This document shows, piece by piece, positions 2,536-23,671 of a stretch of DNA of 64,000 bases. The notes beneath the pieces are model-generated. The model was not told the origin of the DNA and did not search any database. It worked only from the letters and a program-made list of their open reading frames with translations. Both the position numbers and the translations under genes were made by a program. Every line of letters starts with the position of its first letter. Positions within the stretch are counted from its first letter, which is position 1. The DNA lies in NCBI GenBank assembly GCA_951406725.2, contig OX597832.1:57350001-57414000 (forward strand). The letters are read 5' to 3'. The DNA comes from Octopus vulgaris. Its lineage: Eukaryota.

Positions 2536-3313
2536 TAATGCTAGTCTTGTCTACTGGCCTGGGCTGCACAGTTTGACAGGATCCAACAAGCCACAGGATT
2601 ATGTCAAGCTCCAGTGTTTGCTTTGGCATGGTTTTCTATGGCTGGATGTCCTTCCTAAATGCCAACTGTGGAGGCACATGGCTTAGTGGTTAGAGTGTTG
2701 CACTCATGATTGTAAAATTGTGGTTTCGATTCCTGGACTGGGCAACACATTGTTTCCTTGAGCAAAACACTTAATTTCATATTCCTCCAGCCCATTCAGC
2801 TGGCAAAGCTGCGTAGTCCTGTGATGGACTGGGGTCCCATCCAGGAGGGGATTGTATGCATCATGGAACTGGCCCTTTGAATCTATATGACTCAGGAAAG
2901 ATCTTTAATCTTTTATCCTTATCCAAATCCTAATCCTAATCCCAACTGCTTTACAAAGTATTCTTGGTGACACTTGTCAGGTCACTCAGTGACTTAACGA
3001 GATGAGAAAAGGAAAAGGCTACCTTGGCTGAATGGTGGTGGTGGTGGTGGTGGTGGGGGTGTTTGAGAGAGGTGGAGGTGGTTTGACGCTAGGCATTAAA
3101 AGTCTCAGGTATGATAGAGAGACACACACAGGCACAGGTGTCTTGCTACGGAGGAGATTCATAGCTACCCTGACATTATATAACAATGTGTGGGAAAGAT
3201 GATACACACACACAAACATATATATATATATAAAAATATATATATTTATTTATATTTGTGTTATATATATTTATGTGTGTGAGTGTGTGTGTTATATATA
3301 TTTATGTGTGTGA

Positions 3314-5004: not shown

Positions 5005-7455
5005 GGTGTTTCGTGTTGCAAGACAGTGTGTGAGAGAGAATCGTGATGTGGTAGGAGAGAAGTGTGTTCGCATGGAAGATGGTTCACTTGCGCTAAATGA
5101 GGATGCAAAGAGAGAGGTTTGGAGATGCCACTATGAAAGGTTGCTGAATGAAGAAAATGAATGGGATAAAGAGAGTCTGCCGAATGTTGACCCAACAGAG
5201 GGACCAGCTATCCGAGTTGATAGTTCCGTGGTAGCTAAGGCAATTAGAAGCATGAAGACAGGGAAAGCCCCAGGCCCATCAGGAATCACTGCAGAGATGC
5301 TCAAAATGTCTGGTAGTGTCGGCTATAGCCTAGTCACCCGTATAGTTAATCAGGTGATACACAAAGGGGTCATACCCAATGACTGGTGTAGCAGTATAAT
5401 AGTCAACTGCTACAAAGGTAAAGGTGATGCCCTAGATACAAATAACTACAGAGGTATCAAGCTGTTGGACCAGGTGATGAAGGTTACGGAGAGGGTCATA
5501 GCCCAACTAATTAGAGAGAGAGTTAGTTTAGATGAGATGCAGTTTGGGTTTGTGCCAGGGAAAAGTACTACTGATGCTATATTCCTGGTAAGGCAGCTGC
5601 AGGAGAAATACCTAGCCAAAGATAAGCCCGTAACCTGGCTTTTGTTGACATGGAGAAAGCCTTCGACAGGGTCCCCCGATCCCTTATCTGGTGGGCAATG
5701 AGGAAAATAGGGATAGATGAATGGTTAGTGAGAGCTGTGCGGGCCATGTACAGGGACGCCGCTAGTAGGGTGAGGGTTGGAAATGTGTACAGTGAAGAAT
5801 TCCGGGTAGAGGTAGGAGTCCACCAAGGCTCAGTACTCAGCCCCCTCCTATTTATCATAGTCCTCCAGGCAATAACGGAGGAATTCAAGACAGGATGCCC
5901 TTGGGAGCTCCTCTATGCTGATGACCTTGCTCTAATTGCTGAGTCGCTATCAGAACTGGAGGAGAAGTTCCAGGTGTGGAAACAAGGATTAGAATCGAAG
6001 GGCCTCAGAGTCAATCTAGCTAAAACCAAAGTCGTAATCAGTAGGAAGGTAGACAAATCACAAACACCTCCAGGTAGATGGCCCTGCTCGATCTGTAGAA
6101 AAGGTGTAGGTAGAAACTCTATAAGATGCACCAAGTGTAAGCTATGGACACATAAGAGATGCAGCAATGTCAAAGGAAGGCTAACTAGGAAGATGGTTTT
6201 TGTATGTGGCAGATGCTCAGGAACAATAAACACTGAAAATGCTCTGAGACCAACTTCCGTCACTTTCCAGGGAGAAAAACTAGAAATAGTTGATAGTTTC
6301 CGTTACCTAGGTGACCAAGTCAGCAGCGGGGGCGGGTGTGCTGAAAGTGTAACTGCTAGAGTAAGAATAGCTTGGGCAAAGTTCAGAGAGCTCTTACCTC
6401 TGCTGGTGACAAAAGGCCTCTCGCACAGAGTGAAAGGCAGACTGTATGATGCGTGTGTACGAACAGCCATGCTACATGGCAGTGAAACATGGGCCGTGAC
6501 TGCTGAGGATATGCGTAAGCTCGCTAGAAATGAAGCCAGTATGCTCCGATGGATGTGTAATGCCGGTACTCACACTCGGCAGAGTGTAAGTACCTTGAGA
6601 GAAAAGCTGGACCTAAGAAGCATCAGTTGTGGTGTGCAAGAGAGATGTTTGCGCTGGTATGGTCATGTGGCGAGAATGGATGAAGATAGTTGTGTGAAAA
6701 AGTGCCACACCCTAGCGGTTGAAGGAACCTATGGAAGAGGCAGACCCAGGAAAACCTGGGACGAGGTGGTGAAGCACGACCTTCGAACTTTAGGTCTCAC
6801 TGAGGAAATGACTAGAGACCGAGACCTCTGGAAGTGTGCTGTGCGCGAGAAGACCCGGCAGGACAAGTGAGTCCATAACCCGTGGCCTTCTACATGGGAT
6901 GGAGCCAGCCTACGTATGCATACCTTCCCTTCTTGGGACACAAAACTCTACTTGTGAAGACGTGATGAGGCAAGTGAGGATCAGAATCGAAATCGATCAA
7001 TGGAAATTGCGGATGTGCTACCAGTGCCGGTGGCATGTCAAAACTCTGCTTGTGAAGACCCGTTGAGGCAAGTGACGATCAGAATCGAAATCGATCAATG
7101 GAAATTGCAGATGTGTTACCAGTGCCGGTGGCATGTAAGAGAACTTTCCGTTTCGCGACCGTTGCCAGCACCGCCCCGTTTCGTGTCCGTTGCCAGCCTC
7201 GCCTGGCACATAAAAAGCACCATCCATTCGTGGCCGTTTGCCAGCTCTGTCTGGCACCAGTGCGGGTGGCACGTAAAAAGCACCCACTACACTCACGGAG
7301 TGGTTGGCGTTAGGAAGGGCATCCAGCCGTAGAAACACTGCCAGATTTGACTGGGCCTGATGAAGCCTTCTGGCTTCACAGACCCCAGTAGAACCGTCCA
7401 ACCCATGCTAGCATGGAAAACGGACGCTAAACGATGATGATGATGATGATGATGA
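5005..7455 (+). mobile_element. RTE-clade LINE, 5'-truncated, with RT ORF2, 3' UTR and (GAT)n tail
   Basis: RT motifs KAPGPSGI, NYRGIKLL, QFGFVPGKSTTDAIF, EKAFDRVPR, GVHQGSVLSPLLF, LLYADDL, FRYLG, GRPRKTW; stop at 6870; frameshift near 5630 joins ORFs 4754-5701 and 5650-6870; ends in gatgatgat repeats. Confidence 0.93.
6941..7136 (+). repeat. Two tandem ~98-bp units in the RTE 3' UTR
   Basis: caaaactct..cttgtgaagac..gaggcaagtga..atcagaatcgaaatcgatcaatggaaattgc..ccagtgccggtggcatgt occurs at 6941 and 7039. Confidence 0.9.
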
Positions 7456-21033: not shown

Positions 21034-21632
21034 ATGTCTGTATCGTTTTAGGCTAGAGTCAAATATTTGAACCTGCATATTCTTACCTAAGATAGTAATG
21101 TTCGCTTAGGCACAGAGATGCTTAAATTCTTCCCAGACATGCCTTATGTATGTAGAACATATAGTTAAGCATTGGTTATTATGCTTGATATAGTTAAATA
21201 AAGGTATTTTCTAATCAGTTGAAATTATGACTGTAATGACATAAAGCCCTCCCCACAAAAATTCAGTCTTTAATGAAAATTCTTGTCTAGAAAGTCATGG
21301 GAGAGAACTCTGAAGTGGAAATTGATTAAAAATTAAAGGAAAACCCTGAATGGTCAGTGAATCCAATCTTTTGAAGGTACACTGACAGTGTTGGATCTGC
21401 CAAATTTTTAGTATTTGATAAAATAATTGAAAAACTTGCCATCACATCTGGAAAAAAATTATATTTAAAAAAGAAAAATCTACAATAATTTTGTAATTTG
21501 TCTTTCTTTTCTTCCTCTGAATAATAATGGCTAAATGTAATAACGAAGAAATTTTTTTAGAAAACATTTTCTTTGAATTACTGTTTTATTTCCATAATTT
21601 TTAATTGTTAAATTTCCTCATTTGTTTTCCAG

Positions 21633-21770
21633 ATTTGGAATTCCTATGGAGTTATTATGTATTCCAGTGCTGCCTATGACTATCCGATAACTTCTTTAGC
21701 CTGGAATCCTAGTGGAGAACTGTTTGTTGTTGGTTCCTTCAGCAGTCTTCGACTCTGTGATCGCAGCGGG
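21633..21770 (+). CDS. IFT80: Internal coding exon of intraflagellar transport protein 80 (WD40 repeat region)
   Basis: Polypyrimidine tract tttgttttccAG precedes 21633 and GTAAAG follows 21770; 138 nt, phase 0/0. Translation IWNSYGVIMYSSAAYDYPITSLAWNPSGELFVVGSFSSLRLCDRSG aligns without gaps to my recollection of vertebrate IFT80 ([46 protein letters not shown]). Confidence 0.9.
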
Positions 21771-21960
21771 GTAAAGTCTTTTATTACTTGCTTTAAATAC
21801 AGAATTAACGATGCCATTAACACTTCAATTGCAGTGAATTAATTACTCTTACTTGTTGTAAATAGCTGGAAACAGTTCTTTTACCAAACATTCCACAAGA
21901 AAACTCCCACCCCTTAATATCAAATATTACAGTTTTATTTAAAATATTACAAATCTCAGT

Positions 21961-22401
21961 GCAGGCATGGCTGTGTGGTTAAGAAGTTTGCTTCCCAAGC
22001 ATGCAAGTTGGGTTCAGTCCCATTGCGTGGCTCCTTGGGCAAGTGTTGTCTTCTATAACCTCAAGCTGATCAATGCCCTTGTGAATGAAAAGTGGCGCAG
22101 GCCCGCCAATACTTGCACTGGCCACAGTTGTCATCTTTCGGGAATTTACGGGACGGACCACGTCGCCGTATCGACCGCGTGTATCTCGTGATATCCTTCC
22201 GGCATCGGTTGCGGGTACGTCCACGTGTACGTGGGCGATACCGTGAGCTTAGGAACCGTAGCCGGACCCGAGTTGTTTTCCAAAAGCATCTCAACCTCAA
22301 GGCACATGCCTTAGCTCGGCGTTCCCCGTCCGCCCGTCGCGTTCGCGCGGCGAGCGGCAGCGTCGCCGGCGGAATTGCCATTCGGGGACACTGAAACAAG
22401 T
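21961..22401 (+). mobile_element. SINE family A copy whose body is replaced by an unrelated GC-rich block
   Basis: Head present 21961-22089 (..cccttgtgaatga); tail motif actgaaacaagt resumes at ~22390; the intervening ~300 nt have no SINE similarity. Confidence 0.75.
22091..22390. other. Compositionally foreign GC/CpG-rich segment of unknown origin
   Basis: Hand count 184/300 G+C (~61%) and ~40 CpG in an AT-rich, CpG-poor window; sharp boundaries. Confidence 0.85.
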
Positions 22402-22407
22402 CTTTTA

Positions 22408-22773
22408 GGCACAGAAGTGGCTGTGTGGTAATTAGCTTGCTTACCAGCCACATGGTTCCTGGTTCAGTCCCACTGTGTGGAACCTTGGGCAAGTGTCTTC
22501 TACTATAGCCTCAGGTCAACCAAATCCTTGTGAGGGGATTTGGTAGAGGGAAACTGAAAGAAGCCTGCTGTGTCTGTTTGTCCCCCGCTACCATTGCTTG
22601 AAATCGATGTTGGTGTGTTTACATCCCTGTATCTTAGCAGTTTGGAAAAAGAAACTGATAGAATAAGTACTAGGCTTACAAAGAATAAGTCCTGAGGTTG
22701 ATCTGTTCGATTAAAGTCAGTGCTCCAGCATGGCCACAGTCAAATGACTGAAACAAATAAAAGAATAAAAGAA
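22408..22773 (+). mobile_element. SINE family A, full-length copy
   Basis: Head-to-tail match to the 19921-20311 copy. Confidence 0.9.
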
Positions 22774-22799
22774 TATATTATGCATGTGTGTGTGTTTTC

Positions 22800-22930
22800 T
22801 TTTTTAGTATTCTCATTTGTGAGAGCAGTTGAGTTTATTTCAGATACTCTCATTTTAAAAATCATCTCTGGCTAATCATTGAGAGGACATTGGTGTTGCC
22901 TTGGTGGAGGTTTGTGCTCTCTGATTGCTC

Positions 22931-22991
<61 letters not shown>

Positions 22992-23345
22992 CATTATTAC
23001 CTCTGCCTTAGCGAAGGTGGAGGTATTGTTTCAGTTGTGTTTGTTTGTTTGTTTGTCTGTGGACAAGATGGCTCAAGAACTGCTGGATGGATTTGGATGA
23101 AACATTCAGGGATATTTGGCCTTGTGACTGGCACAAACTGATTAGATTTTGTGATCGATCCAGTACTGGACAAGGATTCTGGATTATTTTTCCTGCTTTT
23201 TAACTTAATGTTTGAGAGCGTACGGGTTCATTTTTAGTATTCTTGTTTGTGAGAGCAGTTGTTTTAAAAATCATCTCTGGCTAATCGCTGAGAGGAGATT
23301 GGTGTTTCCTTGGTGGAGGTTTGTGCTCTCTGAGTGCTCTTGTTA
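22800..23345 (+). mobile_element. Helentron/HINE (DINE-1-like) non-autonomous element plus an upstream partial copy of its 3' end
   Basis: 22997 ttacctctgcc..ggtggaggta subterminal inverted motif, (GTTT)n/GTCT tract, 3' ccttggtggaggtttgtgctctctgagtgctc stem-loop; the 3' part is repeated at 22800-22935. Confidence 0.6.
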
Positions 23346-23671
23346 TTATTGTTTTTGCCACTTACACCTTGGTGGGGCATCAGTTTTTGATGTATAGAAT
23401 GTAGATTTGATGTAAGGCTAACAGTTGTTTTGCCTTCTTTTAGCTTTAGTGTATTTATATCTAAATTGCTGCTGGTAAACAAACAGACCTGACTTGGCAC
23501 TGCAGCTTTTGAGCAAAATTCCTTACTTGCCATTGCAGGCTTTACAGATTCATTCCATTTTACAGGTGAGATTCATCATAAAAGATAAATAAATAGCAAC
23601 AATGAAGAGATGGGTCAGTGGTTGCTTCATTTACTAGAAATAGCTGCCAAGTACCTTATATCAAACTCTTC

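Follow-up and report, generated by a model that had tools for sequence, protein, structure and literature searches.

The GC- and CpG-rich block at positions 22091-22390 of the window (the whole 64,000-nt stretch of Octopus vulgaris DNA that was analysed) is, as judged by comparison with the rest of the genome, made up of two pieces of the host's own rDNA that lie back to back within an interrupted SINE. The identity of the donor, the orientation of the pieces, the unique junctions, the lost SINE body and the lack of a TSD or poly-A are direct observations. The explanation preferred here, to which we assign a probability of about 0.72, is that the block is a templated rDNA patch at a germ-line double-strand break that was repaired by end joining with the loss of about 240 nt of the SINE. 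Parsimony favors the deletion and the insertion having been a single event. Coordinates of the features discussed are given in Table 1.

Table 1. Features at and around the rDNA block (positions in the window)
Feature	Position	Strand	Remarks
IFT80 coding exon	21633..21770	+	46 codons; AG before, GT after; IFT80 residues 212-257
5' head of old SINE	21960..22089	+	Best genomic matches 81-86%; cut at insert start
Probable filler AAG	22090..22092	.	Found neither in SINE copies (mostly TTT) nor in donor (GAC/ACC)
Piece A, rDNA intergenic-spacer sub-repeat	22093..22253	-	161 nt; antisense to rRNA; subtype adjoining 141-bp spacer array
GG microhomology	22252..22253	.	Common to end of piece A and start of piece B
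Piece B, 28S rRNA 3' region	22252..22389	+	138 nt; sense; from about position 3137 of RF02543
SINE 3' tail remnant	22390..22401	+	Joined blunt to piece B, without microhomology
Complete second SINE copy	22406..22770	+	Directly behind tail; neighbor outside the event

The first-pass annotation had described the block as foreign-looking and as a stretch of 300 nt rich in GC and CpG, and the composition is as it stated. The block has 61.3% GC and 40 CpG (CpG o/e 1.42) against a window background of 35.3% GC and a CpG o/e of 0.41. Sliding 300-nt windows over the 64,000 nt hold 3.9 CpG on average (SD 3.7, 99th percentile 18), and the four that are richest in CpG all overlap the block. The look is foreign because host rDNA has the same composition, the rDNA array having 64-65% GC and 45-46 CpG per 300 nt; the foreign origin was not upheld, since both halves are multi-copy host rDNA. 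As had also been noted, no second copy of the block was found in the window. CpG is also raised, though less so, at 6300-7450 of the window (up to 21 per 300 nt), and this second stretch, with its internal duplication of about 130 nt and its GAT-repeat tail, resembles the 3' end of a young retroelement.

The nearest coding sequence is an exon whose best match is IFT80 (PDB 8bd7/5n4a over the residues given in Table 1, E 3.9e-17), with WD40 proteins scoring close behind. The insert begins about 320 nt beyond the 5' splice site of this exon, and we infer an intronic location for the block; a search with short peptide motifs did not find the next IFT80 exon. A crude splice-motif scan of the block found a single GTGAG at 22243 and no polypyrimidine-AG acceptor on the + strand, for which reason the block was rejected as a new exon. 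Its longest stop-free stretch is 142 codons on the minus strand, and no coding role is proposed. The block is probably neutral intronic DNA, and no function is proposed for it.

The SINE head aligns with the 5' part of eight longer SINE copies in the window and ends at GTGAATGAA, and the 12-mer ACTGAAACAAGT at 22390 is the tail motif of the SINE family. Alignment to the window copies thus agrees with the earlier placement of the head stop at about 22089 and of the resumption of the tail at about 22390. The head end and the tail motif are separated by 205-251 nt in seven of the eight window copies, and the eighth lacks the exact tail motif. Genome-wide, seven of the 14 best matches to the head have the tail motif at most 330 nt away, at distances of 123-269 nt (six at 227-269 and one at 123). 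These alignments support the view, already taken in the annotation, that about 240 nt of SINE body has been lost with other sequence in its place, so that the change would be a substitution and not an insertion. Judging from its best matches elsewhere (Table 1), the SINE head is old. Further along the window, an ATT microsatellite is flanked by two copies of another repeat (22805-22930 and 23227-23356) that are about 76-79% alike.

A search of the host genome with the block, in which 40 of 320 candidates were scored and gave 56 matches, split the block into query positions 3-163 and 162-299, each of which is multi-copy elsewhere. The only full-length match among the scored candidates was the block's own locus. 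The insert was refined to 22093-22389 (297 nt), preceded by three unassigned bases at 22090-22092, and rDNA covers 297 of its 297 nt. The block itself had no match in Rfam at E up to 1 (21900-22800 searched), and its identity was read from the surroundings of the donor loci.

The donor loci of piece B fall within Rfam LSU_rRNA_eukarya matches, and the piece is identical to 13 fetched loci at 135 of 138 positions. It extends into the last variable expansion region, which we take to be ES39/D12, and stops 187 nt short of where the LSU match ends. Seven copies of piece B form a tandem array on C20 with a period of 17.9-19.1 kb, a stretch of which contains 18S, 5.8S and 28S. An exact 25-mer of the piece occurs at 22 places in the genome, which are the seven in the C20 array, its own locus and 14 elsewhere. 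Piece A maps to spacer sub-repeats located between the 141-bp array, which is downstream of 28S, and the 18S leader. The 5' part of piece A belongs to the subtype bordering the 141-bp array, which is found at six genomic places including piece A itself. Its closest copies among the best 40 of 257 candidates are 93% identical (G000:C14:30212630 and C16:14279634), and with the best scored copy differing by 7% the exact donor of piece A was not found in that set. Within rDNA units A and B are oppositely oriented, and at five loci the distance between the end of B and the nearest A is 0.9, 1.5, 1.7, 2.0 and 3.4 kb.

Copies of the donor type are intact on other contigs. The C20 tandem array is unlikely to be the donor of piece A, as its spacer repeats are 77-87% identical over partial lengths. 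At least two spacer types coexist in the genome, one in the array at C20:23.95-24.07 Mb and another in units on C14, C16 and C33, and the assembled tandem array is without the A subtype seen in dispersed units. Since the A subtype is absent from the assembled array, the block may record another or an older rDNA variant.

Each of the three junction patterns has one match in the genome, its own locus, when two mismatches are allowed, which indicates that this composite exists as a single copy and does not form a repeat family. An rRNA-derived SINE or a young chimeric repeat family was rejected on this ground, as was the ordinary young repeat with many genome-wide copies that the annotation had kept in reserve. 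No poly-A or poly-T lies beside the insert. There is also no TSD, the longest direct match between the flanks being 7 nt, which equals the 95th percentile of the null, and lying 30 nt off the junction; on both points the initial description was correct. The three bases at the left junction are likely untemplated or locally templated filler.

The insert has accumulated changes of its own. Seven changes separate it from its donors, and four of these are CpG transitions, for which the binomial P lies at 0.003-0.035 according to the share of transitions that is assumed. Piece B has three changes, each found in none of seven distinct donor copies, of which those at 22288 and 22304 are CpG to CpA and that at 22325 is a transversion in a CpG. 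Relative to its subtype, piece A has a 1-nt gap and four changes, consisting of CpG transitions at 22124 and 22210 and non-CpG changes at 22113 and 22192. Decay of this CpG type is as expected of a resident copy, and it fits a location inside a gene, given the methylation reported for octopus gene bodies (PMC9476566). The divergence of the insert from its donors is about 2.4%, mostly at CpG, which supports the insert being young relative to the SINE, though not brand new.

Public runs were compared over 21600-22960, with 76-100% of X1-X3 read (76% for X1), eight pieces per run and a filter that drops some records. In X1 a 165-nt contig lies whole on 22010-22174, reaching about 80 nt to either side of the left junction, with four other letters and no gaps. 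Its depth of 22.7 is about half that of the unique flank contig (47.3), which differs from the assembly at 21677, so that X1 probably represents a haplotype other than the assembled one. Were the same allele present in X1, a contig of about 175 nt should run through the private letters, and none was found among the matches listed. The A|B and right junctions are unbridged in X1, X2 and X3 among the matches listed, so that of the two junctions over which the annotation had called for reads only the left is bridged. X2 and X3 have no left-junction piece among the matches listed, and the sole contig counted at 22076 in these runs has a 1-nt gap there, a pattern that may reflect another allele, possibly an empty one, or missing records. 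From 3% of a further run, X22, no reads were obtained at the locus.

The gaps in bridging just described are what could be said for an assembly chimera, a contaminant or horizontally acquired DNA, all of which the annotation had entertained along with an artificial sequence. Against such an origin, host rDNA at 93-98% identity explains 297 of 297 nt, as compared within the host genome. A chimeric read should reproduce the rDNA of today, in whose copies the private CpG transitions are absent, and the left junction is present in X1, where the flank allele differs. An artefactual or foreign origin is thus extremely improbable, with a chimera in particular being made unlikely by the bridged left junction and the CpG-type decay.

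According to the preferred explanation, a double-strand break would have occurred inside the SINE, about 240 nt of the SINE would have been lost at the break, and two segments would have been copied or captured from one rDNA unit. The pieces would have been joined to each other by the 2-nt microhomology and to the host by the 3-nt filler or blunt joins, and the decay of about 2.4%, mostly at CpG, would have followed. A more detailed version, whose chance of being correct within the break-repair explanation we put somewhat short of even, is that both broken ends were primed on one sense-strand rDNA molecule, an idea that comes from both pieces reading antisense from the host junction inward. 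The donor flanks discarded at the A|B join, which in rRNA sense are the 28S immediately preceding B and the spacer immediately preceding A, are identical at 19 of 25 positions, a likeness that was found post hoc and is reached by one of 3000 random 28S-spacer pairs. The two flanks also form the best duplex among about 4860 28S 25-mers (-15.5 kcal/mol, with the next site at -15.4). The tail of the spacer copy could thus have paired with the 28S immediately preceding B and stopped the second copy there, after which the second end could have switched onto the first through a pairing of two bases. Single-stranded DNA or read-through RNA may have served as the template.

A repair patch of this kind has counterparts in other organisms. 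The signature described for class 2 TSIs is a patch templated at a distance, with a deletion, no TSD or tail, short microhomology and filler (PMC5110952). On the evidence of its sequence the block has three class 2 TSI features, namely a distant template, no TSD or poly-A and the marks of end joining. Like the class 2 TSIs and TSIPs reported by Onozawa and Aplan (PMC5110952), it is a short patch (experimental TSIs are 73-414 bp) from a distant locus, and the lack of a TSD and poly-A, the deletion, the microhomology, the untemplated bases and the germ-line origin are further points of likeness. It differs in having a multi-copy rDNA donor in two inverted pieces and in belonging to a cephalopod and not to human; in addition, the deletion of about 240 nt exceeds a microdeletion (PMC5110952). 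In yeast, complex insertions at breaks often consist of two pieces from a single locus in inverted arrangement (PMC11724301), and both wild-type and aged cells capture rDNA at breaks (PMC11372161), which makes rDNA a known donor. The block resembles the inverted yeast insertions in its two pieces of about 150 nt from one locus, their inversion and the end microhomology of 0-4 nt (PMC11724301). Its donor gap, however, is 0.9-3.4 kb versus 2-119 bp, and its internal microhomology is 2 nt versus a median of 6 bp, in a yeast count that left rDNA aside (PMC11724301). The octopus event is moreover a natural one in a metazoan germ line, whereas the breaks in yeast were induced (PMC11724301).

The loci fetched with A or B include at least nine further rDNA patches, 151-1014 nt long, that stand isolated in ordinary DNA. 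None of the nine has poly-A beside it, and one has a flank repeat above the 95th percentile of the null (an 8-mer versus 7), which is not so for the other eight. Many dispersed patches are pure spacer. When eleven other small patches were re-oriented, ten had a single orientation and one was a two-piece inversion. In this inversion, at C7:59961224-59962209, 363 nt of antisense 141-bp repeats are followed by about 620 nt of sense A-type repeats; this patch consists of spacer only and has no TSD, and a genome search with its left flank for an empty site returned one match, the patch itself. At C3:181409636-181415479 is a rearranged rDNA orphon with antisense pieces of the 18S end, ITS and 28S followed by sense spacer repeats, which includes about 900 nt of other sequence. 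In human, small strings of 45S and spacer are likewise scattered outside the rDNA arrays (Robicheau et al. 2017, PMC5381670). The resemblance lies in the small, decaying 45S and spacer fragments outside arrays, with the difference that the human ones are old and degraded and the octopus copy is 93-98% identical to its donors, with resolvable junctions (PMC5381670). Dispersed rDNA patches in octopus were not found in the titles and abstract openings of the papers listed on octopus or cephalopod rDNA, spacers and R2, which does not prove that reports are absent. A 632-nt 28S patch at C5:7247002-7247633 repeats 20 nt of its own end in inverted orientation at its right junction, which is the scar of a snap-back.

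Alternatively, a LINE reverse transcriptase could have twin-primed on a Pol I read-through RNA at a pre-existing break, which would leave a 5'-inverted, tailless insert with a target deletion. The geometry of twin priming (PMC2837659), an inverted upstream piece followed by a sense downstream piece, is that of the block on the spacer-sense strand, and the inverted composites in the window, on C7 and on C3 have this polarity in three of three cases. Three of three would arise by coin toss one time in eight, and the composites are a selected set found by searching with the block, so that their common polarity is a weak signal. Endonuclease-independent L1 insertions show target deletion at 18 of 21 loci together with filler, and like the block they are short and tailless, although the insert here is not a LINE (PMC1920257). 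RNA templating has been proposed for class 2 TSIs (PMC5110952), and RT-like ORF fragments and R2-type junctions are present in the rDNA of this genome. On the other hand, the TSD and the 3' poly-A or tail of a twin-primed retrocopy are absent, a hypothetical RNA reaching 0.8-3 kb past the 28S end into the spacer repeats would be needed, and a DNA source simply explains the many pure-spacer patches. Such retro-capture is therefore regarded as unlikely. The annotation's suggestion of template-switch capture by a retroelement survives as this possible rival, with nothing to connect it to retrotransposition of the SINE itself. Tailless retropseudogenes resemble the block in that they are short, have no tail and derive from rRNA (5S in that case), but they are defined with flanking TSDs, and half of the insert is spacer and not mature RNA (PMC5322556). 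As TSDs are required by definition (PMC5322556) and none is found at the insert, the block was not placed in that class.

It is also conceivable that the 297 nt were copied in one piece, either from a rearranged rDNA orphon or extrachromosomal circle that already had the A|B junction or from an inverted precursor that had lost a hairpin with the 19/25 stem. B and A at the C3 locus are oriented such that a 3.5-kb deletion would yield the A|B junction, and the first rank of the flank duplex would suit a hairpin. The assembly has the A|B junction only once, however, and the C3 spacer copy is 90.7% identical and has subtype letters, shared with C14, C29 and C33, that are missing in the window. These letters rule out the C3 inverted orphon as direct donor, and capture in one piece is considered very unlikely.

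The rDNA units of this genome have other unusual features. The spacer between the 28S end and the 141-bp array contains degenerate copies of the 28S stretch that surrounds the R2 target site, with 80-100% identity over 25-104 nt, in most of the units examined (for example at C33:240904-241005). Two of these copies in the C14 unit are separated by about 1.8 kb of sequence low in CpG. The copies may be secondary or decoy R2 targets. Several units have related sequence that is not rDNA in place of the 28S upstream of GGTAGCC at the R2 site, one of these units (L026) having a 267-aa RT-like ORF fragment; these sequences are likely R2-type insertions. The R2 site is intact in the two C20 units that were checked.

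As an intronic repair scar of host rDNA, the block matters little on its own. It does carry a caution for genome scans, as the GC-rich expansion segments and spacer of host rDNA look foreign in an AT-rich, CpG-depleted genome and Rfam misses a fragment of this kind. The locus would be a usable presence/absence marker between populations or species if an empty allele exists, and dispersed patches keep rDNA spacer variants unlike those of the assembled array. The polarity of the patches bears on whether RNA or DNA templates the repair of germ-line breaks in a mollusc. It has been considered, as a quite unlikely generalization, that tailless 5'-inverted rDNA patches form a small class in which a single Pol I read-through transcript, running from 28S into spacer, primes synthesis from both ends of a break, with a 25-nt imperfect repeat guiding the switch in the present copy. 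If this were true, the patches would record, in a natural germ line, break repair that is RNA-templated and homeology-guided, and would show how far read-through of cephalopod pre-rRNA extends.
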